Virus record (IMG/VR): IMGVR_UViG_3300045733_000207
Span: 1 to 50,977 of that record
Strand: one strand, 5' to 3'
DNA: 50,977 nucleotides
Source of the DNA: a virus
Taxonomy: Duplodnaviria > Caudoviricetes
The notes under the pieces are model-generated. The model did no database searches and was not told the DNA's origin. It saw nothing but the letters and a program-made list of their open reading frames with translations. Of this stretch, positions 20,666 through 39,791 are shown piece after piece; within the stretch, counting starts at the first letter, position 1; each line of letters begins with the position of its first letter. A program made the translations under genes and the position numbers.

Positions 20666-20899
20666 GTGCGTAACATGGACATTAAACACAATCTCACCTT
20701 AGTGCATTGCAGGGACTGTCAGCATCACCAACTAGGCTTAGACCGGAAACTACGTTGCCGATTCAATGTTGGTAAACCATTGCCAGTCTGGGCAATCACA
20801 GAATCAATCATGGTCGTACCGCCAAGCAAGGGCTGGCCGTGCAAGGCGTTTAAGTCCAACACGGATTTGAGGGCCGGCAAAGCCGTACCCTCGAAATGA
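20666..20899 (+). CDS. Small Cys-rich hypothetical protein; its C-terminus runs into an attC-like site
   Basis: CRDC...C...C; in-frame AAC at 20858. Confidence 0.55.
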   Translation: MRNMDIKHNLTLVHCRDCQHHQLGLDRKLRCRFNVGKPLPVWAITESIMVVPPSKGWPCKAFKSNTDLRAGKAVPSK

Positions 20900-20908
20900 T
20901 GGTTGTCG
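20854..20908 (-). mobile_element. attC-like recombination site (locus 1)
   Basis: + strand: GTCCAAC acgga TTT GAGGGC cggc aaa gccg [T] ACCCTC [G] AAA tgatg GTTGTCG; extrahelical T and G on the right arm. Confidence 0.8.
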
Positions 20909-24664: not shown

Positions 24665-26098
24665 ATGAATGATTACGAGAAATTCTTGGAGCAAAAGTCG
24701 CAGCTTGGTGGGAACTATGGATTTGAACCGACGTTCATGCCCGCGCTTCTGTTTCCTTTTCAGGTCGCATTGACACAATGGGCAACAATGAAGGGACTTT
24801 GCGCTATTTTTGCCGACTGTGGTCTTGGCAAAACTTTCATTCAGTTGACCTGGGCTGAGAATGTCGCACGCAAAACAGACAAGCCCGTTCTCATTCTTGC
24901 GCCTCTTGCCGTATCAGGTCAAACAGTAAAAGAAGCCGACAAGATTGGAGTAGACTGTCAACAGAGTCGCGACGGTAAAGTCATGCCGCGAATCACGGTG
25001 ACTAACTATGAGAAATTACACCTGTTCAATCCTTCTGATTTTGCGGGATGTGTCTGCGATGAATCATCCATCTTGAAACATTTCACTGGCGCAACGCAAA
25101 TGCAAGTCACGCGGTTTATGAATAAGATGCCGTATCGATTGCTTTGCACGGCAACCGCCGCGCCTAACGATTACATTGAACTTGGAACGTCAAGTGAGGC
25201 GTTAGGGGAGTTAAATTATTCAGATATGCTGTCCAGATTTTTCAAACAGCTTGATGATAAGGGACAAAAGAGTGAGACTAAGAGACAAGACTTTGACGAG
25301 AAAGCATCAAAGCATTTTGCAAAGCTATCATTCAGAGTGTCGCAGACTATCGGGCAATACCGATTAAAACATCACGCTATAACGGCTTTCTGGAAATGGG
25401 TTTGTTCATGGTCAAGAGCATGTCGGAAGCCGAGTGATCTGGGATTCGATGATACGGGATTCATTCTACCGGAACTCCAAGAACAGCATCACATCATAAC
25501 ACCGACCACTCCGCCTGAGGGAATGCTTTTCTGTATGCCTGCTTTCGGACTGAGAGAAGAACGGGAAGAGCGACGGCGCACTATGAAAGAGCGTTGTGAG
25601 TTTGTGGCGTCATTGGTGAATCATTCTGAGCCTGCTGTTATTTGGTGCCACATGAATAAAGAGGGTGATCTGCTGGAAAAGATAATTCCTGATGCGCAGC
25701 AAATCAAAGGGTCAACGCCGGATGATATGCGTGAAGAACTTTACGCGGCGTTCAGTTCCGGCAATCAACGAGTGCTGATTATCAAGCCAAAGATAGGAGC
25801 TTGGGGACTCAACTGGCAGCATTGCGCACACGTTGTCACATTTGCCAGTCATTCTTATGAACAGTTCTATCAGTCAATAAGAAGATGCTGGAGGTTCGGG
25901 CAGAAAAGGCCTGTAAGATTAGACGTTGTCGCAACCGAGGGAGAACGCGGAGTGTTTGAAAACATGATGAGGAAGTCTCAGAGAGCGGATGCAATGTTTA
26001 CAGAATTAGTCAAACACATGAACGATGCACAAAAAATAGAGAGAGTCAACAGCTACACAAACAAAATGGAGGTTCCGTCATGGTCAAAGAACAGCTAA
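24665..26098 (+). CDS. SNF2-like superfamily 2 helicase
   Basis: ADCGLGKT (Walker A), CDESS (Walker B), TATAAPN, GLNWQ, QSIRRCWRFGQ. Confidence 0.9.
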   Translation: MNDYEKFLEQKSQLGGNYGFEPTFMPALLFPFQVALTQWATMKGLCAIFADCGLGKTFIQLTWAENVARKTDKPVLILAPLAVSGQTVKEADKIGVDCQQSRDGKVMPRITVTNYEKLHLFNPSDFAGCVCDESSILKHFTGATQMQVTRFMNKMPYRLLCTATAAPNDYIELGTSSEALGELNYSDMLSRFFKQLDDKGQKSETKRQDFDEKASKHFAKLSFRVSQTIGQYRLKHHAITAFWKWVCSWSRACRKPSDLGFDDTGFILPELQEQHHIITPTTPPEGMLFCMPAFGLREEREERRRTMKERCEFVASLVNHSEPAVIWCHMNKEGDLLEKIIPDAQQIKGSTPDDMREELYAAFSSGNQRVLIIKPKIGAWGLNWQHCAHVVTFASHSYEQFYQSIRRCWRFGQKRPVRLDVVATEGERGVFENMMRKSQRADAMFTELVKHMNDAQKIERVNSYTNKMEVPSWSKNS

Positions 26099-27036
26099 TC
26101 ACACCGCGCTATGCGATATACAATGGTGACTGCGTTCAAGCAATGCAAGAGTTGAAAGATGAATCAATCCACCTTTCTCTATACTCACCTCCTTTCGCCG
26201 GGTTATACGTTTATTCGAGCGATGAGCAAGACCTGTCAAACTCCGTCAACTTCACGGAGTTTATGGATCACTACCGTTTCGTGATAAACGAAATCCACCG
26301 GCTCACAATGCCTGGCCGAATATCAGCCGTGCATTGCATGGATATTACCACTGGGAATAGTGGGTTCGATCATCTGAAAGATTTTCCGGGAGATATAATT
26401 AGGCTCCACGAGGAATGCGGCTTTCATTATATCGCACGGTATCACATTTGGAAAGAGCCATTGACGATCCGCAATAGAACAATGATGAAGTCGCTATCGC
26501 ATAAATGTCTTACGTTAGATTCAACAAAATGCAGCGTTGCTAACGCGGATTATCTGTTGATCTTTCGGCGGTCCGGTAACAATCCTGTTCCTGTTGCGCA
26601 TACTCACGGACTGTTGAACTATGCCGGGGAAAAGCCGATACCAAACGAAGTCCTGCCTTATCGTAACTGGCAAGGTAGTCAGCTTGAGAACAGATATTCT
26701 CAATGGGTTTGGAGGCAATACGCAAGTTCATTCTGGGATGATGTTAGGATTGACCGCGTGTTGAAATACAGACCCGCAAAAGATCAAGACGATGAAAAGC
26801 ATTGTCACCCCTTGCAACTTGACGTAATAGAGCGTGCCTGCGTGCTATGGTCAAACCCTAACGACGTTGTGTTGACTCCGTTCATGGGAGTGGGATCAGA
26901 GGTCTATGGGGCAGTACTGAACGGACGCAAGGCCATAGGGGTTGAGTTGAAGTCGTCATACTTCAAACAGGCGGTACGAAATCTAGCCGAGATCAAGCTG
27001 GATGATGAGCATGGCGAGTTCCAATTCAAAACTTGA
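26080..27036 (+). CDS. DNA amino-methyltransferase (N4-C/N6-A, beta class)
   Basis: SPPF catalytic motif near the N-terminus; HP.QL and VLTPFMGVGS SAM-binding motif near the C-terminus. Confidence 0.9.
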   Translation: MVKEQLITPRYAIYNGDCVQAMQELKDESIHLSLYSPPFAGLYVYSSDEQDLSNSVNFTEFMDHYRFVINEIHRLTMPGRISAVHCMDITTGNSGFDHLKDFPGDIIRLHEECGFHYIARYHIWKEPLTIRNRTMMKSLSHKCLTLDSTKCSVANADYLLIFRRSGNNPVPVAHTHGLLNYAGEKPIPNEVLPYRNWQGSQLENRYSQWVWRQYASSFWDDVRIDRVLKYRPAKDQDDEKHCHPLQLDVIERACVLWSNPNDVVLTPFMGVGSEVYGAVLNGRKAIGVELKSSYFKQAVRNLAEIKLDDEHGEFQFKT

Positions 27037-27072: not shown

Positions 27073-27267
27073 ATGAACGAACCAAACAAGGTGAGATTTA
27101 CCTTCACGCTTGATCCGGTTATCGTGGAGAAGGTGAAGGTGCGGGGTAGGGCATTTGGGTTTGCGCTTAGTACGTGGATCAACCACATACTCGCCCGGTC
27201 AGAGGGCTTAGTTGACGATACGAATTGGCCGAGGAAAGATATTGATGCAACAAAGGAAGATGAATGA
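27073..27267 (+). CDS. Ribbon-helix-helix-like regulator
   Basis: VRFTFTLD strand plus two helices; promoter TTGACT-17-TAAGGT at 27033-27061. Confidence 0.5.
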   Translation: MNEPNKVRFTFTLDPVIVEKVKVRGRAFGFALSTWINHILARSEGLVDDTNWPRKDIDATKEDE

Positions 27268-27497
27268 ACAACGATCCCGCCACAATCCCTGACCGTGCCG
27301 CCGCGATATTGTTCCCCATGCTTGGCATGAATGTCTATTCACGGGTTGATACACTGGCTGAACGGCTGGCGAAGTTGCTTGGACCCGGTCACACTATCCA
27401 TACCGTGATAGAAGGATTCAAGGAATCACTGGATGACCCTGAAAACACATGCAGAGAACTGGCTATACTGATTGCTAAAGCGGAGGGTGAGATATGA
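27264..27497 (+). CDS. Hypothetical protein
   Basis: ATGA coupling at both ends. Confidence 0.55.
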   Translation: MNNDPATIPDRAAAILFPMLGMNVYSRVDTLAERLAKLLGPGHTIHTVIEGFKESLDDPENTCRELAILIAKAEGEI

Positions 27498-27670
27498 ACA
27501 GAATCAAGCGACAGAAGAATACTGCAAAGACCTGCAAGAATTGCTCGGCATGGTTCGGTGATGATGAGACTTGCTGGTATATCTCCTGCAAGCGCAACCC
27601 TTGCCAATATGACCATTGGAGATCAAAGAAGTTTGCAACGAGTTCCAACAATGCCGTGAGGGTCAAATGA
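27494..27670 (+). CDS. 58-aa Cys-rich protein (absent from the ORF track)
   Basis: Own translation MNRIKRQKNTAKTCKNC...SSNNAVRVK; GGAGG RBS; stop overlaps ATG 27667. Confidence 0.55.
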   Translation: MNRIKRQKNTAKTCKNCSAWFGDDETCWYISCKRNPCQYDHWRSKKFATSSNNAVRVK

Positions 27671-27709
27671 CCGCTGCGGGCATTTGTACTCTCGACGGGC
27701 TGGTTCGCT
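27643..27709 (-). mobile_element. attC-like site Z
   Basis: TTCCAAC aatgc CGT GAGGGT CAAATG ... CATTTG [T] ACTCTC [G] ACG ggctg GTTCGCT. Confidence 0.85.
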
Positions 27710-28392
27710 GTCTTGATCTCTTCTGCTGCGCCGGGGGGGCAGGAGAGGGCTACCGCCGCGCCGGGTTCGACGTGACCGGCGTGGACATCCGGCCTCAACC
27801 GCAGAACCCGCACCGATTCATTCAGGGGGACGCGCTCGCGTTCCTGCCCGCCCACGGCCACGAGTTCGACTTCATCCACGCAAGCCCGCCATGCCAAGGC
27901 TACAGCACGCTTGCCGCGATGCACCCAGGCAAGACGTGGCCGAAACTGATTGACCAAGTGCGGTCGTTGCTCAAGGCGACCGGACGGCCTTACGTGATTG
28001 AGAACGTCGAAACCGCACCGCTCAACCGTGAATCTGACCTGTTCGGAAACCACGGCGTCTTGCTGTGTGGGAGCATGTTTGGCCTCGGTGTGGAGAGCGG
28101 ATTTCTGCGGAGGCATCGAATCTTCGAGACGAGCTTTCCAGTCCCGCAGCCGGAATGCCGCCACGTCGGCAAGGCGGTGGGAGTTTACGGCCACGGCGGG
28201 CACACTGGAAAGCACCGGATGCTGTACCGCGAAGAGGCGGCGAAGGCGATGGGGATTGACTGGATGAACAGGGACAACATGTGCCAGGCGATACCGCCGG
28301 CGTACACCGAATGGCTTGGGCGCTACGCGATGGCCCATACAGCGAACGCCCGAAATCAGGGGCTTGCGCACCAAGGAGAACGCCATGACTGA
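27667..28392 (+). CDS. Short DNA cytosine-C5 methyltransferase (cassette cargo)
   Basis: LDLFCCAGG (motif I), SPPCQ (IV), IENV (VI); GC-richer than its flanks. Confidence 0.85.
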   Translation: MTAAGICTLDGLVRCLDLFCCAGGAGEGYRRAGFDVTGVDIRPQPQNPHRFIQGDALAFLPAHGHEFDFIHASPPCQGYSTLAAMHPGKTWPKLIDQVRSLLKATGRPYVIENVETAPLNRESDLFGNHGVLLCGSMFGLGVESGFLRRHRIFETSFPVPQPECRHVGKAVGVYGHGGHTGKHRMLYREEAAKAMGIDWMNRDNMCQAIPPAYTEWLGRYAMAHTANARNQGLAHQGERHD

Positions 28393-28438
28393 GACAAACG
28401 CGAGCGGGGCGCAAGTACCCTGCATTTCATTGTTGGCC
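28341..28438 (-). mobile_element. attC-like site A; loop holds AGGAG RBS and ATG 28385
   Basis: AGCGAAC gcccga AAT CAGGGG CTTGCGC ... GCGCAAG [T] ACCCTG [C] ATT tcatt GTTGGCC. Confidence 0.85.
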
Positions 28439-28657
28439 GATCACCTCGACTTGATGGTTGATGAGTTCAAGAGGATCAAGGCGCTGACAAGGGATACCGA
28501 AATTCAAGGGCTTTGTGACCGGGCAATCTCAAACACGAAACAGCGCGTTCCGGTGATTGTTCAACGGAACGAATGGGAGAGGAAGTTCTGGGAACTGGAC
28601 AAGCAATGGTCGGAGCGATACGCCGAATTGAAGAAGGCCACCGGCAGGAGGAAGTGA
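28385..28657 (+). CDS. Hypothetical protein (cassette cargo)
   Basis: RBS and ATG inside the site A loop. Confidence 0.7.
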   Translation: MTETNASGAQVPCISLLADHLDLMVDEFKRIKALTRDTEIQGLCDRAISNTKQRVPVIVQRNEWERKFWELDKQWSERYAELKKATGRRK

Positions 28658-28763
28658 AATGACGCCCAAAGAAATTGAACAAGCAGAGCATGACGAGTTG
28701 GATAAGCACGGTGTGTTGAAGTTTGCCGAGCTTTCTCCTGTACGGTCGGTGCCATTGTTGGCT
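28636..28763 (-). mobile_element. Degenerate attC-like site B
   Basis: Intact right arm CCTG[T]ACGGTC[G]GTG ccatt GTTGGCT; left arm shortened, starting GGCCACC instead of GGCCAAC. Confidence 0.6.
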
Positions 28764-28967
28764 GAGGCAGTTCTTATTGACATCTTCAAGACAACTGTTC
28801 AGGCAATGCGAGATAGGCATATTCATCTGGCAGATCATTGTCTTGATTGCAGGCGTGAGTTTCGATGGGAATTCATATGCCCTGAATGCGAGGGCATTGA
28901 AATTGACAAAAGAAATCAGCAAGCCAACGCTCCTCTTGAGCGTTTGCGAGAAAAGGAGAATGGATGA
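28659..28967 (+). CDS. Hypothetical protein with CxxC...CxxC (cassette cargo)
   Basis: GGAGG RBS; CLDC...CPEC. Confidence 0.7.
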   Translation: MTPKEIEQAEHDELDKHGVLKFAELSPVRSVPLLAEAVLIDIFKTTVQAMRDRHIHLADHCLDCRREFRWEFICPECEGIEIDKRNQQANAPLERLREKENG

Positions 28968-29012
28968 AAAAGAAGCGGCTGTCGAGCAATACGCTCCGAG
29001 AGGTTGTTCGGC
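28922..29012 (-). mobile_element. attC-like site C; loop holds AGGAG and the ATGA overlap
   Basis: AGCCAAC gctcct CTT GAGCGT TTGC ... GCAA [T] ACGCTC [C] GAG aggtt GTTCGGC. Confidence 0.85.
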
Positions 29013-29197
29013 TATGCTATCTCTGCAAAGCACCTGCAACGCGACTTCTGGTGCGGTGGGGTTATGATCCAGACATTACTACACGGAAACCAATTTGCTC
29101 GAAATGTCCTTCAGGTGGAGTTGACAGTACGTGTGGTTACTCAACTGAGCCATTACCGAACGCGGAGCATGAGCCTCCGCGAGAAAGGAAAGTATGA
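28964..29197 (+). CDS. Small zinc-finger-like protein (cassette cargo)
   Basis: CYLC...CSKC; ATGA coupling at both ends. Confidence 0.65.
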   Translation: MKKKRLSSNTLREVVRLCYLCKAPATRLLVRWGYDPDITTRKPICSKCPSGGVDSTCGYSTEPLPNAEHEPPRERKV

Positions 29198-29253
29198 AAC
29201 GATTACGAATTGCCGCCGCGCTTCTCGCGGCAGGCTCCGGGCTTTTGTTGGCC
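29155..29253 (-). mobile_element. attC-like site D
   Basis: ACCGAAC gcggag CAT GAGCCT CCGCGAGAA ... TTCTCGCGG [C] AGGCTC [C] GGG ctttt GTTGGCC. Confidence 0.8.
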
Positions 29254-29484
29254 GGAAGTATCTACGCAGATACCAACGTCTGGTCTAACGACAGCACCAA
29301 CATATGCTCGATCAATACATGGAGGGTATCTACTGATCTTACCATTGGCCCCGTCACTATCTGTACGACTAATGGGGTAGTCAAGATCAAGGAGGGCGTA
29401 GCACTTGATGAAGCGAGTAGAGCTTTTTGGAAGGCAGTGTCAGATGCGTATCCCGCGATGTTTGAAACGGTGAAAAAGAAGTGA
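29194..29484 (+). CDS. Secreted hypothetical protein (cassette cargo)
   Basis: Signal peptide MKRLRIAAALLAAGSGLLLAGSIYA, mostly encoded by the attC loop and arm. Confidence 0.7.
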   Translation: MKRLRIAAALLAAGSGLLLAGSIYADTNVWSNDSTNICSINTWRVSTDLTIGPVTICTTNGVVKIKEGVALDEASRAFWKAVSDAYPAMFETVKKK

Positions 29485-29485
29485 A

Positions 29486-29544
29486 GGCCAACGCTGACAT
29501 GAGGCGCGGCGGGTGAGCCGTCGCCCTCCATGTGTTGGTTGGGC
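29486..29544 (-). mobile_element. attC-like site E (59 bp)
   Basis: GGCCAAC gctga CAT GAGG..GGCGG gtgag CCGTC..CCTC [C] ATG tgttg GTTGGGC. Confidence 0.8.
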
Positions 29545-29550
29545 AATGTT

Positions 29551-29715
29551 ATGGACGTAGATAAGAAATGGTTCAAGGATCAATTGTTCGTGATTGTGTA
29601 CCACACGGCGCACGAAAGCGAGTTGACACTGAGGGAGATGGTTCAGGCCCTTCACGAAGTGGCTGAACACGTCATGTTTCTGGAGGAAAAGAAGAATGAC
29701 AACGATGGAAGGTAA
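29551..29715 (+). CDS. Small hypothetical protein (cassette cargo)
   Basis: ATG 7 nt after site E. Confidence 0.5.
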   Translation: MDVDKKWFKDQLFVIVYHTAHESELTLREMVQALHEVAEHVMFLEEKKNDNDGR

Positions 29716-29881
29716 ATGTGCGGCACGTCTGCATTGGTTGCATGACTGTTCAATCGGAACATTGGATGTAGACGGCTATGAGTTTGTAACGGGGCAGGGC
29801 TTCACAATCGAAGCTGCTGCGCTCGCCGCCGAAGCTGACATAAAAGAGGCGTGTCAATCATGGGACTATGTAGTCGTCTAA
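29696..29881 (+). CDS. Small hypothetical protein (cassette cargo)
   Basis: GGAGG RBS; TAA stop lies inside the GTCTAAC box. Confidence 0.6.
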   Translation: MTTMEGKCAARLHWLHDCSIGTLDVDGYEFVTGQGFTIEAAALAAEADIKEACQSWDYVVV

Positions 29882-29934
29882 CGCCGCAACTCAGCCGCGA
29901 GCTTAGGCGAGTAGGCTGGTGTTGCTGGTTGGAA
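29876..29934 (-). mobile_element. attC-like site F (59 bp)
   Basis: GTCTAAC gccgca ACT CAGCCG ... [T] AGGCTG [G] TGT tgctg GTTGGAA. Confidence 0.8.
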
Positions 29935-29940
29935 CTGAAT

Positions 29941-30099
29941 ATGAAAACAACTTTAGATATGCTTAAAATGAGATTGTTCCTTTTGGAGAAATTGCGGGAT
30001 CAGATGGATGAAGATATTTTGCATGTATGGTTCGCATGGCAATGGGCGAAATATAGACATAGTTCCAACACTCAAGCTGAGGCTGAGAGAAGAGCGTAG
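29941..30099 (+). CDS. Small hypothetical protein (cassette cargo, AT-rich)
   Basis: Bounded by GTTGGAACT and AGTTCCAAC. Confidence 0.55.
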   Translation: MKTTLDMLKMRLFLLEKLRDQMDEDILHVWFAWQWAKYRHSSNTQAEAERRA

Positions 30100-30133
30100 C
30101 GATGAACGATAGATCTCCAGCGCCTTGTTCGGC
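30063..30133 (-). mobile_element. attC-like site G (weaker inner stem)
   Basis: TTCCAAC actcaa GCT GAG ... CTC [C] AGC gcctt GTTCGGC. Confidence 0.65.
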
Positions 30134-30596
30134 GGCTCCGGTCAAATGGAAAGGACGCGCTGTCTTTAGCTCGGCCCACGTCGAATGGGGAACTGACCCG
30201 GCACTAAAAGCGGCGCTCGACAAAGAGTTTAGGTTCACGCTCGATCCATGTACACCTGGACAAATATGGGATGGCAGGGCGATGTCGTGGGTCGGACATC
30301 GCGTCTTCTGTAATCCTCCATACGGTAAAGGCATGGACAAGTGGTTCGTCAAAGGGCCGGAAGCAGAACTCGCCGTGTTCCTTGTGCCTGCAAGAACCGA
30401 TGTGGGGTGGTTTCACGACTACGCGCTAAAAGCTGCCGAGATCAGATTCTTTCGTGGGCGTCTTAAATTTGTGGAGGGTCACGCTATCAAACCAGACAAA
30501 TTCTTTGGGACTGCGCCGTTCCCCTCGATGCTCGTAATTTTCAGGCGCGAGGATTCGCCGAACAGTGCAATATGCGTCAAGACGGTTTGCCATTAG
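30102..30596 (+). CDS. Phage N6-adenine DNA methyltransferase (Dam-like; cassette cargo)
   Basis: EW.T.P, FTLDPC, FCNPPY, LVPARTD, RGRLKF and APFPS motifs. Confidence 0.88.
   Translation: MNDRSPAPCSAAPVKWKGRAVFSSAHVEWGTDPALKAALDKEFRFTLDPCTPGQIWDGRAMSWVGHRVFCNPPYGKGMDKWFVKGPEAELAVFLVPARTDVGWFHDYALKAAEIRFFRGRLKFVEGHAIKPDKFFGTAPFPSMLVIFRREDSPNSAICVKTVCH
30557..30579 (-). mobile_element. attI-like terminal site 2
   Basis: GCCGAAC-agtgc-AATATGCGTCA with no hairpin partner; matches 21245-21267. Confidence 0.6.
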
Positions 30597-30635: not shown

Positions 30636-30775
30636 TTGACAGTGCGCGGGGATTTGGTAGGATGTGCGACATGCTAGAGTTAAATCAGAATCAGTTTGAA
30701 TCCCGTTCAAGTGGCGCAAGCCATTTCTTCCCGCAAGGGGAAACTCTAGCAGGCTTGGGCGGGATTCTTTTTTTT
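30636..30775 (+). ncRNA. Promoter plus multi-stem leader RNA/terminator with antisense box, upstream of the replication genes
   Basis: TTGACA...TGGTAGGAT; stem 30698-30711/30754-30767 followed by T8; two GCAA tetraloop hairpins; 30742-30751 is complementary to 30672-30681. Confidence 0.65.
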
Positions 30776-30795
30776 ACAGGGAAAAGAGGATTGCC

Positions 30796-31449
30796 ATGTA
30801 TGGTAAATTATTTGTTTCGATGTACGAGGGGTCAATGGTTGGAGCTGGTGCCAATGTTTTTGCGTTATGGGGTTATTGCATAGCCAAAGCCGATCCAGAG
30901 GATCACACTGTTATTTTGAATCCCGAACTTTTAGCAAAGATCATTGGTACTACTGCCGAGGAAATATCAAAGTCATTGACATTTTTGACATCGCCTGATC
31001 CTAACTCAAAAAATGGAGATCACGGCGGTTGCAGGTTGTTACATCAATCAGGATTCCAGTATTTCCTTGTGAGTCACGAACACTATCGGAACATCAAAAA
31101 CAGCGAAGACGTAAGGGCTTACAACAGAGAAATGAAACGTAGAGAACGTGAAAGGAAGGCGTTGAAGGTAAATGTCAATGACAGTCATGGACAAGTCAAT
31201 GACTCTGCCTCTGCTTCTGTATCTGATATTGGGGATTGTCAAGGGGGACATACGCTCGCCGAGTGTCTAGCTGCTTCTGAGGGAATTGGAATGAAGCCTG
31301 ACGATGTTAAGAAGTTCTTCGACTACTACGACGGGGTTAAAGGCTGGGGTACAATCAAAGGCAGTCTCAAGTCAGCGTTGTCATACTGGAAATCCAACAG
31401 CCATAATTTCGACAAGCCTAAATCACGAACCCGCCCAGTGAACATATGA
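30796..31449 (+). CDS. Putative replication initiator
   Basis: N-terminal HTH-like region, charged linker, C-terminal FFDYY..KGW...W domain; coupled to the primase-helicase. Confidence 0.6.
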   Translation: MYGKLFVSMYEGSMVGAGANVFALWGYCIAKADPEDHTVILNPELLAKIIGTTAEEISKSLTFLTSPDPNSKNGDHGGCRLLHQSGFQYFLVSHEHYRNIKNSEDVRAYNREMKRRERERKALKVNVNDSHGQVNDSASASVSDIGDCQGGHTLAECLAASEGIGMKPDDVKKFFDYYDGVKGWGTIKGSLKSALSYWKSNSHNFDKPKSRTRPVNI

Positions 31450-33059
31450 ACATGCAAGATTTTCTTTCCCGGTTGCAAAAGGTTAGCAAGACCTCAAAGG
31501 GCTGGCAAGCGTGTTGTCCGTCCCATGCTGATACAACGCCGTCCCTTTCTGTTGACGAAGGAGAAAAAGGAATTGTTCTTACGTGTCGCGCTGGTTGTGA
31601 TACTGAGAAGGTCGTTGCCGCAATGGGTTTGAAAATGTCAGACCTATTTCGGGACTCATCAAAGGAAGTCATAATCACGCCTATCAAGCGGCAGGTCGTT
31701 GAAAGTTACGTGTACACCGACGCGCTTGGCAAGCCACTTTTCAGGACATGCCGAATTGAGCCAGGCAAGGACGGTCGCAAGAAAGACTTTGCGCAACAGG
31801 GAATTGGGGCAGACGGAAAATATCAGAACAACATGGAAGGCATGATCCGCGTCTTATACAATCTTCCGGCAGTATTGAAGTCTGAACAGGTCGTAATCTG
31901 TGAGGGGGAGCGCAAAGCAAATTGGATCAACGAAACAGGATACGTAGCAACGTGCAATGTTGGAGGCGCGGGGAAGTGGCTTGACGCTTGGACTGATTGC
32001 CTTGCCGGGAAATCTATTGTTATTTGTGCCGACAATGACGAACCCGGTCAGAACCATGCACGCCTTTTACACAAGGCTCTATCAGGACACGTCAAAGAAA
32101 TTCTTCATATCCGAGTACCGAAACCACACAATGACATTGTTGACTATTTCCGCAGTGTAGGCATGGACAAGGACACACGTACAAAGGCGTTCATTGATTT
32201 GCTCATGGCCGGAATGCCTGTCCCGCAAAATCTTGATGTGCCTATCCGCTCAATGGCGCAACTAGAAGAAGAATACATCGCATTCATTGCTAAATCTTCC
32301 AATACAGTTTTACTTCTTGGCAACTGGTTGCCAGCGTATCGAACCTTGCGGGGAATTGTACCCGGAGAGATGGTTACGATCATTTCAGATACCGGCGTTG
32401 GCAAAACAATGGTGCTGCATAATATAGCGTTATCAGCATCGCCGCTCTATGTCCTGTTGTTTGAATTGGAGTTGCCGAGCAGTTTAACCTTTGAACGGCT
32501 TGCCGCACTCACAACGGAATGTAGTGGATATGACATCGAGTCATTCTACAAGTCAACCAAACCCGTCCACTGGCAACGAAACGAACAGGTCAAGCGGATA
32601 TTCACCTGTTCAGAATCAAATCTATCAGTTGAGAAAATCAGGGAGATATTGCACAAGGCTGAATTGGCAATGGGCGTTAAACCCGCTGTTGTGATGATTG
32701 ATTACATCCAGTTGATGCAAGGCAGGGGTAGTCGCTACGAGAAAACATCAGACGTTGCAGAACAGTTAAAGGTGCTCGCCAAAGAGGAAAACGTAATATT
32801 GATCCTTGCATCTCAAGTATCCCGCGATGGCTCAGAGCAAATAACATTGCACTCGTCTAAAGATAGCGGGGCAATAGAAAATTCATCAGGTTGCGTTCTC
32901 GGTGCATGGCGCGACGAACATGAACGCGACAGCATTTATATCAAGCTTCTGAAGTTCACCAAAGGCCGCGCCGGAGAATTTGCAGCCGTAAAATGCACCA
33001 TTGACCGCTCATTGAGAATTAAGGAGGCAATGCCCTTTGACAAAGATGACCCGCGCTGA
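31446..33059 (+). CDS. Bifunctional primase-helicase (Zn finger + TOPRIM + DnaB-like SF4)
   Basis: CCPSHAD..PSLS...CRAGC; ICEGE...ADNDEPG; DTGVGKT; IDYIQL; ASQVSR; KDSGAIE. Confidence 0.92.
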   Translation: MNMQDFLSRLQKVSKTSKGWQACCPSHADTTPSLSVDEGEKGIVLTCRAGCDTEKVVAAMGLKMSDLFRDSSKEVIITPIKRQVVESYVYTDALGKPLFRTCRIEPGKDGRKKDFAQQGIGADGKYQNNMEGMIRVLYNLPAVLKSEQVVICEGERKANWINETGYVATCNVGGAGKWLDAWTDCLAGKSIVICADNDEPGQNHARLLHKALSGHVKEILHIRVPKPHNDIVDYFRSVGMDKDTRTKAFIDLLMAGMPVPQNLDVPIRSMAQLEEEYIAFIAKSSNTVLLLGNWLPAYRTLRGIVPGEMVTIISDTGVGKTMVLHNIALSASPLYVLLFELELPSSLTFERLAALTTECSGYDIESFYKSTKPVHWQRNEQVKRIFTCSESNLSVEKIREILHKAELAMGVKPAVVMIDYIQLMQGRGSRYEKTSDVAEQLKVLAKEENVILILASQVSRDGSEQITLHSSKDSGAIENSSGCVLGAWRDEHERDSIYIKLLKFTKGRAGEFAAVKCTIDRSLRIKEAMPFDKDDPR

Positions 33060-37659: not shown

Positions 37660-38870
37660 ACTGGTTGTTAATCTCTCTAATGATCCCTCTAATATGCCAG
37701 CCTACTCTACCATCCCGCACAATCCCGCACACATGCAACCACACTCTACCAGCTCTGCTCTGCACCAATCTGCATTGTGTTGTTGCGCTCATGATACCAG
37801 CATATTAAGCATCAGCCGTGCCATATCCTCACCCCACTGCAATATATTCCTCATCACACTCGTAACCCATTGCAATCCAACACAACTGTGTAATTCTGTA
37901 TGCACTATCCACGCGCTGCTTGTGTTACTCAGTACACACTCTATGTTTCGGAATTCACATATATGCGAAGATTTTCACATATCTGATTCTCGGTCCCGCC
38001 AATACACTGTGTACAAACTGTGTACATACTCACACCCAGTCATAGGGTAGGGTTATGGTCAACCTGAGACTGTGTACATATACTGTGCTGGTGTAAGGGT
38101 TACTCTATGTCATAGGATAGGTATAGTATATCCGTACCAGGAATATCGCTCGCGATTATACCACACAACCATATTCAGTGTCAATCACCAATCCGGGCAT
38201 ATCCCACAAAACATGCGTTCCGACCAATACTGTATCGCAAAAATAGTTCGCACAACATACACAGTTTCAGCCCGGACAGTTTCATAATTTGGTTATCACA
38301 TCATATCTGCATACAGTTGTATGCACCAACAACAACGCTGCATACAACTGTATGCACCAACACTATTGACACATGTGACATACATCACTACTGGATTTGG
38401 TAGTCGCTGCATCCCACGCGCCATCTGTGTTGCCGTGACAATTTGTCACGCCTAAACTGGGGTGATCGTATGCCTCGGATAGCCTATGTCCTGCATTATG
38501 TCCTGCATAAGCCTAGCCTAGCCTGCATCCTGGCTCATCCTATGCCATATAGGGATTACACCCCACCATGCTGTGTAACCTATTGCATATCAATTATGTT
38601 GACATATGTGCATATTGACATAAGTGCGCATCTGTTGTAGGTCATTGTAGTGACAATGTTATTGAGTAGACAGGTTATATGTTATGCGACGTAGATCATG
38701 GCTGTGCATGCGCTGCTGCTGTGCTGTGTCATGCTGTGGATATGGGTGTGCAGGGGCAGGGGGGGGAGGCCGGTCCCTTTGCCCACCGATGAGTTTGTTG
38801 CACGTAATTGATCCAACCTTCACGCAATTGAAAGAAACATCTTGACACATTCTAATTTATTATGACATAT
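37660..38870. other. ~1.2-kb non-coding divergence region with short repeats, palindromes and a G tract; candidate packaging, terminus or origin region
   Basis: No credible ORF; C-rich to G-rich skew switch near 38640-38700; lies between divergent operons upstream of the terminase genes. Confidence 0.55.
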
Positions 38871-39327: not shown

Positions 39328-39791
39328 AATTAACGGAGGTTTAGTTATGAAAAACGTCAAGATAATGTCGCAATGGGATATTCGGCGAATTGTGAGGGAT
39401 GAGATAGACAAAAGTATTGCCCATATAACAGAGAAAACAATTCAGAGAATTTGTAATGATTATCTTTATCGAACGGAGAGGGGTTTTCTGGATCATCTGG
39501 CTAGACAATTTGGTTTGAAGGTTGCGGTTCCTGTGACTCAAAACATAACGGATGCTACCCCGATTCGGGATTTGCGTTTTACACGACGCACTCAGAGTTG
39601 TTTGGAACTGGCAGATATAAAAACCATTGCAGAATTGACGAATAAAACTACGTCTGATTTACTAAGATGTAGGGGACTTGGCAAAAAAACATTCTTTGAA
39701 GTTCGTAATCGGTTAAAAAGTTGTGGGCGGTCATTGAAAGATGAATGATGGTTAGGAAGATAGAGACTGACGAGCGGGGGTATTATGATGC
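39274..39791 (+). repeat. 38-bp direct repeats (39274-39311 and 39754-39791) flanking the alphaCTD gene
   Basis: AGGAAGATAGAGACTGACGAGCGGGGGTATTATGATGC occurs twice, 480 bp apart. Confidence 0.9.
39347..39748 (+). CDS. Protein with an RNA polymerase alpha subunit C-terminal domain
   Basis: PIRDLRFTRRTQSCL..ADIKTIAEL......LL...GLGKKT..EV...L...G.SL matches the RpoA CTD pattern. Confidence 0.85.
   Translation: MKNVKIMSQWDIRRIVRDEIDKSIAHITEKTIQRICNDYLYRTERGFLDHLARQFGLKVAVPVTQNITDATPIRDLRFTRRTQSCLELADIKTIAELTNKTTSDLLRCRGLGKKTFFEVRNRLKSCGRSLKDE

Follow-up and report, generated by a model that had tools for sequence, protein, structure and literature searches.

Can a row of imperfect hairpins laid across the gene junctions of a phage genome be an array of integron cassettes, with every site facing backwards and no integrase in attendance? 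The question is raised by the window, i.e., the whole analysed stretch of DNA, a virus record of 50,977 bp (IMGVR_UViG_3300045733_000207) with direct terminal repeats and a completeness rated at 100%. At 27.6-30.6 kb it carries seven hairpins that resemble attC, the recombination site of integron cassettes, together with an eighth, weak hairpin (S3) and, at the end, a left box (S7); a further site lies apart from them (Table 1). We believe that this region is probably an array of eight integron-type cassettes, arranged back to front in the complete genome of a phage of virulent type. A profile search of the complete genome gave 0 matches to the integron integrase TIGR02249 and to the tyrosine recombinase PF00589; the array is therefore to be described as a CALIN (cluster of attC sites lacking an integron integrase), and seven model-supported sites within 2.5 kb with no integrase present are what defines one. 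The reading is carried by the anatomy of the sites, their strand, the complementarity of neighbouring boxes, a rule of reading frame at the junctions, and sharp boundaries at the word AAC in other genomes.

The strand was assigned with covariance models. R1 was built from 15 of the 16 repeats between cassettes of the Vibrio phage Va_90-11-286_p16 (L160, MK672802), in which an integrase gene is followed by co-oriented cassettes separated by these 16 repeats. It finds the sites of the Shewanella phage M16-3 (MZ568829) on the cassette-sense strand and three sites of the Tetrasphaera phage TJE1 co-oriented with orf1-3, at 17-34 bits, the reverse strand giving 10-13 bits. R2 was built from 18 attC top strands of M16-3 and TJE1 only, and no sequence of the window entered the training of R1 or R2. 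The top R1 match in the window on either strand is S5b (minus, 18.3 bits, E 0.021), S2 is third (minus, 10.2 bits), and the lone site scores 10.7 bits. R2 gives 9 matches in the window at E<=10; its five best in the genome are S5b (21.6 bits, E 0.018), S2 (17.9 bits, E 0.11), S5c (16.7 bits, E 0.21), S6 (13.8 bits, E 0.87) and S4 (12.2 bits, E 2.0). All five are on the minus strand and within 1.8 kb; four fall exactly at coordinates set beforehand, and the match to S2 (28345-28434) lies within its range. In controls, R2 gave 2 matches in 93 kb of related phages at the same settings, 3 weak matches in 26 kb around homologues of the Dam gene, and 0 matches in 804 kb with default filters.

A family model built from 19 aligned sites (R3) finds three window sites absent from its training, all on the minus strand: S5 (29.0 bits, E 1.4e-5), the lone site (26.7 bits, E 5.4e-5), and S1 (29.2 bits on minus vs 6.4 on plus; a homologue of S1 was in the training set). 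The next match is at 12.7 bits, and R3 scores the same sites 23-39 bits lower on the plus strand. Models of bona fide attC sites match on the minus strand only; the top strand being minus and the genes being on plus, the coding strand is therefore the bottom, recombinogenic one, as the preliminary description had claimed. The check that it proposed, the strand of covariance-model matches relative to the coding strand, gives the same answer: the plus strand is not scored as top. The canonical orientation (gene on the attC top strand, attC downstream) is found in TJE1 and M16-3 and is not found here. A match inside the primase-helicase gene (31531-31581, minus; R2 11.3 bits, R3 10.9 bits) is probably due to chance. 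MAFFT alignments of the sites misplaced the left arms and were kept out of the models; a comparison with Rfam gave no match at gathering scores, which says little.

Predicted folds place AAC...GTT hairpins where they should stand in S1, S2, S4, S5, S5b, S5c and S6, with the exception that the free fold of S6 lacks the hairpin. The preliminary description had put extrahelical bases and a 5-nt spacer on the right arm of the coding strand. The side is borne out by counting pure bulges of 1-2 nt no more than 20 bp from the base of the hairpin: the plus strand has 5 in its 5' arm and 13 in its 3' arm, the 3' arm having more in 5/8 sites, fewer in one and the same number in two. The top strands of the controls show bulges of 15 (5' arm) vs 0 (3' arm) in the 15 sites of L160 and 22 vs 2 in the 18 sites of L161/L162, and their reverse complements show 4 vs 9 and 1 vs 20, respectively. 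A cruder count, that of all unpaired bases per arm (40 vs 16), is ambiguous because S2 and S3 have large apical loops. The spacer as such could not be confirmed: the predicted bubbles beside AAC/GTT are of 2-4 nt (4x4 in S1 and S5b, 3x2 in S2, smaller in S4 and S5c). The end words agree with the assigned strand, most sites showing AACGC on the left and TTGTT on the right of the plus strand, which is the reverse-strand reading of the ends in the control integron (L160).

Over the 19 aligned phage sites the structure is kept while the sequence varies. AAC and GTT are paired in 19/19; 94.5% of the cells are paired, vs 67% after shuffling (0/500 shuffles reach the observed value) and 32-41% with slid partners. 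Both sides change in 10/14 pairs, with 64 double-sided changes vs 20 in shuffles and a covariation score of 0.59 vs 0.12. The right end of S3 is identical to that of S2 at 12/13 positions, and the left arms of S4 and S5 have 71% identity over 28 nt. Words of 9-13 nt common to the site ends are suggestive, but a few are expected by chance in 3.7 kb. A strict filter for AAC..GTT hairpins was tried and rejected as too crude: 11/1709 candidate pairs pass it genome-wide, 3 of them in the array and eight outside the region, and S1, S2 and S5 fail.

In an integron array the crossover falls inside the closing box, so that the outer part of a right box goes with the left box of the site that follows. 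The same staggered pattern is seen here. Beyond AAC/GTT, the complementary runs between each right box and the following left box are 6, 0, 4, 3, 4, 0 and 6, their sum of 23 exceeding the permutation mean of 8.8 (p = 0.002, without S7); S7 adds a run of 5 (sum 28, p = 1.4e-4), S7 itself having been picked by this property. The runs of right boxes against their own left boxes sum to 2, and random AAC/GTT pairs of the genome reach a run of at least 5 in 0.13% of cases. As a positive control, the real integron of L160 shows the pattern between its successive cassettes. Being symmetric, the complementarity cannot on its own tell the orientation. A search for a hairpin partner of S7 found none. The left box of S1 shares a 10-mer with S6, and upstream there is no right box to match it.

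The left AAC (TAC in S3) stands in codon frame 0 at all 8 junctions with upstream read-through, namely S1, S2, S3, S4, S5, S6, S7 and the lone site (20858), and is followed by 6-14 more codons and a stop. The base rate of frame 0 among in-gene AAC words of this genome is 32.6%, which gives 8/8 a probability of about 1e-4. It follows that, whatever was exchanged at the left AAC, the upstream gene would stay in frame and receive a new short tail and a stop. The right-hand GTT falls in all three frames (0, 2, 2, 0, 2, 1), as had been noted before, and therefore an exchange there would not keep the frame. In six sites the upstream stop and the downstream start, often as an ATGA overlap, are enclosed between AAC and GTT; the six start codons that had been assigned to sites (27667, 28385, 28659, 28964, 29194 and 30102) all lie between the left AAC and the right GTT. 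Shine-Dalgarno-like words stand before them: AAGGAG in S2 and S4, AGGAGG in S3, GAGGG in S1, and weaker ones in S5 and S6.

The boundaries themselves can be seen in other genomes. An exact search of metagenome contigs with the 22-nt apex of S1 returned 12 contigs (L163-L174) of several projects, L167 and L169 overlapping in sequence. All 12 have only 27644/7-27705/8 in common with the window, 60-65 nt at 95-98%. AAC is the exact point at which the identity of this 59-nt S1 element starts, and the preceding 60 nt belong to 10 unrelated classes; in 12/12 contigs the upstream open reading frame (ORF) runs on in frame into one and the same tail of 7 residues with its stop. Downstream, the ATG of the element opens in 10 contigs a 13-codon leader running into N6/N4 (DPPW-type) methylases, mutually diverged; the element continues in L166 into a C5 methylase, with which the DNA of the C5 methylase of the window has nothing in common beyond the S1 element, and in L163 into an unrelated body. 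Across DPPW methylase genes that are otherwise 73-86% alike or less, a block of about 100 nt (the site and the first codons) is 96-100% identical. Among the contigs of the run that includes the window, a 151-nt low-depth piece matches only 27647-27707.

The most telling pair is L168 and L173, which have in common 633 nt at 99.7%, from the AAC of an S1-like site to the AAC of the next site, with both flanks unrelated; the ends of this unit are complementary (GTTGGCC inside, GGCCAA at the end). Recurrence with different neighbours was seen for the S1 element and for this unit. As far as a comparison of sequences can tell, the unit gives direct comparative support to an attC at the 5' end of the gene and to a crossover at or next to AA|C. 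Both had been claimed for the window and both are supported, the second not absolutely: the identity starting at AAC and the AAC-to-AAC unit place the crossover at the left box, where AA|C is inseparable from AAC|; the unit and the conserved block place the attC at the 5' end of its gene, and the S1 element is also found joined to unrelated bodies.

In the same 12 contigs (46.5 kb) R2 gives 22 matches at E<=10, and 22/22 are antisense to the genes. In L170, L169, L166 and L167 they fall on ATGA-type junctions of tightly packed genes. The metagenome sites are predicted to form clean hairpins with a bubble of 4 x 3-4 after AAC and two single-base bulges in the 3' arm; their box runs between neighbours are 5, 0, 5, 0, 6, 7; 6, 5, 2; 5, 8, 5; and 2, 3, 5, with own-site runs of 0-2. 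The cargo of the contigs consists of C5, N6/N4 and MT-A70 methylases, and in L164, which is also filed as viral, it adjoins a phage minor capsid gene. At 9486-9617 of L164 (the same contig as L255) the methylase after the S1-like element stops at 43 codons and a 226-codon ORF continues in another frame, likely a frameshift, a pseudogene or an assembly error.

The anatomy is as follows. Wherever two plus-strand genes meet there is an imperfect, attC-like hairpin, and its bottom, recombinogenic strand is the coding one. A unit extends from the C of one left AAC to the AA of the next, its own attC coming first. The left arm gives any upstream gene a short in-frame tail and a stop, the loop carries the ribosome-binding site and the start codon, and the right arm encodes the first 8-33 codons of the unit's own gene. 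With regard to recombination, including the enzyme and the host, we propose the following. An integron integrase of the host, acting in trans, might fold and cut the plus strand at AA|C and excise units or insert them between arrays; we presume so because, in excerpts of two papers, the attC bottom strand recombines about 1000-fold better than the top one (PMC13108822) and the crossover is given, in top-strand notation, as G|TTRRRY (PMC9892861). Units would bring their own ribosome site and start and would close the frame of the preceding gene, so that any order of units would stay translationally coupled; phages could thereby exchange anti-restriction methylases and other small genes with translation still coupled. 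In the mRNA, the hairpin may mask the start region until a ribosome on the upstream gene opens the stem. That a hairpin around the starts also forms in the mRNA, as suggested before, is plausible and may coexist with recombination. It is tempting to go further and propose a cassette class of the phages' own, in which attC is the 5' adaptor of the gene, the recombinogenic strand has the sense of the mRNA, and the site supplies a universal in-frame tail and stop with a portable ribosome site, start and leader, so that AA|C joins give a coupled operon without a platform promoter; we offer this tentatively, as possible and somewhat doubtful.

Several points weigh against an integron-type array. 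The complete genome was searched and has no integrase, and the phage has no known host. The models are home-made and are not the curated IntegronFinder model; the E-values of R2 for single sites are weak (E<0.05 at S5b only), R2 leaves S1, S3 and S5 unmatched, and S3, which no model (R1, R2, R3) matches, is doubtful. R2 also gives a 19-bit match inside a structural gene of the AT-rich phage P12002L (L256:12383-12421); the evidential weight therefore lies in the cluster and not in single matches. The alignment used for covariation was fitted to the model. The sliding-window folding energy of the region is not exceptional (mean z = -0.47; 52 windows genome-wide have z < -2). Two of the 8 neighbouring pairs, S2>S3 and S5b>S5c, have no box complementarity. 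Finally, the S1 element has unrelated gene bodies immediately behind its GTT in the window, in L163 and in L166; the right boundary is therefore also a breakpoint, in three lineages, and site and gene are not always linked. This boundary is the gene/attC boundary of a cassette read on the top strand, and in L160 the repeated sites meet differing genes there. The sequencing runs listed as containing the window are one of DNA, probably its source, and none of RNA; the contigs of the DNA run show no joints across the array, but as contigs drop rare variants this has no bearing on excision.

The alternative that survives best takes the sites for real single-strand recombination sites with sharp AAC boundaries that serve another recombinase, an unrecognised enzyme of the phage or of the host. 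We regard it as unlikely, while giving it some weight: the complete genome has no integrase and many ORFs without a family, the scores against models of bona fide attC are modest, and the S1 apex has 0 exact matches in 185,579 species genomes, so that no link to bacterial integrons is seen. What speaks for an integron integrase is that models of integrase-linked or integrase-tested attC match over the full register, boxes and bulge position alike, and do so on a single strand, that the genome has no match to the Y1 transposase PF01797, and that 5/6 tested phage attC sites recombine with IntI1 according to the excerpted text of PMC9892861.

If the hairpins acted in RNA only, as masked starts, translational couplers or elements of processing or stability, their likeness to attC would be convergent. 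The overlap of start and stop codons inside 6 sites would suit this, and so would the folding: the plus strand folds better than the minus strand at 7/8 sites, by about 28 kcal/mol in total (e.g., -43 vs -33 kcal/mol in S3 and -26.8 vs -16.5 in S5c). In the part of PMC8876359 at hand, attC stem-loops are described as hindering translation of downstream cassettes, and short ORFs as relieving it. We nonetheless find an RNA-only role improbable, as it leaves unexplained the pairing of each right box with the next left box, the sharp start of identity at AAC in 10 contexts, the 633-nt unit with unrelated flanks and the match to attC models, and two sites that counted as intergenic in this comparison, S5b and S5c, have no start codon inside. 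An RNA role in addition to recombination may well exist.

A third explanation, short conserved linkers guiding homologous recombination between phages with no site-specific cut, is still less probable. General recombination or conversion can produce a block such as the one that is nearly identical in diverged DPPW methylases; scattered breakpoints would then be expected, whereas the upstream break is at the same base in 10/10 distinct contexts, and the sites of one array are alike in structure, not in sequence. That the sites are ordinary imperfect palindromes at gene junctions picked by eye is hardly credible: eight of the eleven strict-filter hairpins do lie elsewhere, a few shared 9-10-mers are expected in 3.7 kb and the folding energy is ordinary, but the top 5 model matches fall within 1.8 kb on one strand, the permutation test of neighbouring boxes is significant, the frame rule holds at 8/8 junctions and the same architecture recurs in 12 unrelated contigs.

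We compared the array with known systems. The canonical cassettes of MK672802 and MZ568829 are alike in the imperfect hairpin closed by AAC/GTT, the small basal bubble, the extra bases on one side, the conservation of structure and not of sequence, and the right box that belongs with the left box of the next site. In these controls, the attC top strand carries the genes, which stop before the left box or inside it, and the next gene starts after the site; here the genes are on the bottom strand and the whole site is coding, as tail, stop, ribosome site, start and leader. Unlike a complete integron, the array has no intI, attI or Pc. The textbook cassette, too, is a promoterless gene followed by its attC and read from the platform promoter.

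Phage CALINs are already known. Excerpts of Qi et al. 2023 (PMC9892861) describe them in virulent phages, as attC clusters without an integrase, with methylase cargo and IntI1-competent sites, and propose that they supply anti-restriction genes; the cargo here likewise points to an exchangeable anti-restriction kit. The CALIN of TJE1 differs from the present array by its canonical layout, with its three sites co-oriented with the orfs. "Divergent directions" are noted in the same excerpts for the Polaribacter phage P12002L (L256, NC_028924). In this phage we find a 19.2-bit attC match at 30005-30059 (+), in a 104-nt gap between the minus-strand methylase genes gp35 and gp36; it may be the site that Qi et al. 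called divergent or tested with IntI1. It is antisense to the flanking genes but single and intergenic, whereas the present array is embedded in coding sequence. The effects of attI and attC on translation (ORF-11 at attI1; excerpts of PMC8876359) are similar in that a recombination site carries a ribosome site, a start and a small ORF, a stop is supplied across the crossover, and termination is coupled to reinitiation. In the cases described there the signals belong to attI, or to a minority of attC on the top-strand transcript, and serve cassettes that lack signals of their own; here the initiation region of every cassette is inside its own attC and on the bottom-strand transcript. A search of the full-text literature, in which the site coordinates of PMC9892861 were not compared, found no description of antisense, coding-embedded attC arrays; whole antisense arrays with a coding attC that carries the initiation region and an in-frame terminator were thus not found in print.

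Two other kinds of mobile units invite comparison. Elements of the IS200/IS605 type also rely on strand-specific recognition of an imperfect hairpin and a cut at a short fixed word beside it. They need a hairpin at each end and a Y1 transposase, which this genome lacks, and they have no AAC/GTT closing pairs and no match to attC models. The promoter-stem-loop cassettes of T4-type phages resemble the present units in that small accessory genes of a hyperplastic region are bracketed by repeated stem-loops thought to mediate shuffling. Those repeats differ in being conserved in sequence, carrying promoters and standing between genes, and they are thought to act by homologous recombination.

As to the meaning of the observation, the layout is the opposite of the textbook one and is found in entire arrays, both in this complete genome of a phage and in at least 12 contigs of several metagenome projects; the recombination site also serves as coding sequence and as translation start, and the reading frame at the crossover follows a strict rule. 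Should an integrase cut these sites, anti-restriction methylases would be exchanged as plug-in units that are expressed wherever they land, and surveys that pair an attC with its upstream gene would mis-assign phage cassettes. Cassette genesis, i.e., the attachment of attC to a new gene, is also addressed here: as the same 59-nt site is fused to unrelated methylase families, such arrays may show how it proceeds, possibly via a transcript, and if an integrase cuts the sites they would offer a concrete handle on cassette birth. As the models split the strands by 20-40 bits, viral databases can be surveyed with them directly.

Table 1. Sites and genes of the variable region and the lone site (positions in the window; for sites, the strand is the top strand according to the models)
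Feature	Positions	Strand	Details
S1, attC-like	27643-27709	- (model top)	AAC 27647, GTT 27703; stop of gene 27494-27670, GAGGG, ATG 27667
S2, attC-like	28341-28438	-	AAC 28345, GTT 28432; loop with AAGGAG, ATG 28385 and methylase stop 28392
S3, weak/degenerate	28617-28763		TAC 28619 in place of AAC, GTT 28757; AGGAGG, ATG 28659
S4, attC-like	28922-29012	-	AAC 28926, GTT 29006; loop with AAGGAG and ATGA overlap 28964-28967
S5, attC-like	29155-29253	-	AAC 29159, GTT 29247; loop with ATGA overlap 29194-29197
S5b, attC-like, intergenic	29486-29544	-	AAC 29490, GTT 29538; best match of R1 and R2
S5c, attC-like	29876-29934	-	left box TCTAAC includes the TAA stop of gene 29696-29881; GTT 29928
S6, attC-like	30063-30133	-	AAC 30067, GTT 30127; stop 30099, ATG 30102
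S7, left box only	30554-30563		end of Dam gene; pairs with right box of S6
Lone attC-like site outside the array	20854-20908	-	AAC 20858, frame 0 of ORF 20666-20899; R1, R3
C5 cytosine DNA methylase gene	27667-28392	+	Pfam PF00145
Small gene without family	28385-28657	+	no Pfam/PHROG match; coding score
Small gene without family	28659-28967	+	no Pfam/PHROG match; coding score
Small gene without family	28964-29197	+	no Pfam/PHROG match; coding score
Small gene without family	29194-29484	+	no Pfam/PHROG match; coding score
Small gene	29530 or 29551-29715	+	no PHROG match; coding score
Small gene	29696-29881	+	no PHROG match; coding score
Small gene	29941-30099	+	no PHROG match; coding score
Dam-type N6-adenine DNA methylase gene	30102-30596	+	Pfam PF05869

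The genome encodes an SU10-type portal, a capsid protein, a helicase and a primase-helicase. The array lies in a variable block between a conserved pair of helicase and N6/N4 methylase genes (24665-27036) and the primase-helicase gene (31446-33059). The pair is found in 80/80 related viral loci, the C5 methylase of the block in 1/80, and each of the twelve small ORFs (nine at 28385-30099 and three at 27073-27670) in 0/80; R2 scans found no attC-like array in related phages. On these two grounds, the small ORFs and the scans, we consider the array absent from the relatives. All genes of the block are on the plus strand; the coding score of all twelve plus-strand ORFs is best in the called frame, and long minus-strand ORFs score negative. 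Matches of homologues to the C5 methylase are confined to residues 13/14 to 218/224, the part encoded from the GTT of S1 to the AAC of S2, and those to the Dam-type methylase cover residues about 8-152, encoded from the GTT of S6 to the AAC of S7. The identity of both is at most 50-60%; therefore the cassette boundaries cannot be mapped with them at the DNA level. Eight loci of Dam homologues have no attC-like sites flanking the gene, and the S1 element gave no blastn match in GenBank phages. The cassettes have a guanine-plus-cytosine (GC) content of 0.43-0.63 (0.63 in the C5 methylase cassette, 27649-28346) vs 0.488 in the genome, a spread that fits separate origins.

The lone site, possibly a remnant or a single-cassette site, stands at the end of its ORF and is followed by a 12-codon mini-ORF, AAAGGAGGG and ATG 20934. 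Upstream of S1, at 27073-27670, there are three small plus-strand ORFs (64, 77 and 58 aa) with ATGA overlaps and no family match, and no attC-like sites lie between them. On the other side, 3' of the Dam gene, 30636-30780 contains a TTGACA stretch, a GC-rich stem followed by eight T in a row (about 30720-30778) and then AGAGGA, with ATG 30796; it looks like a terminator and a new transcription unit closing the array.

Farther away, the stretches 38281-38380 and 38577-38660 are AT-rich (GC about 0.38); here the minus strand has the most anomalous fold in the genome (z = -5.2), and there is a long AAC..GTT hairpin. The region lies where the gene blocks switch from one strand to the other, minus and plus, and is possibly an origin or a regulatory region. 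At 39347-39748 a protein of 133 aa is encoded that has the C-terminal domain of the bacterial RNA polymerase alpha subunit (PF03118, E 3.5e-14), an unusual cargo for a phage.

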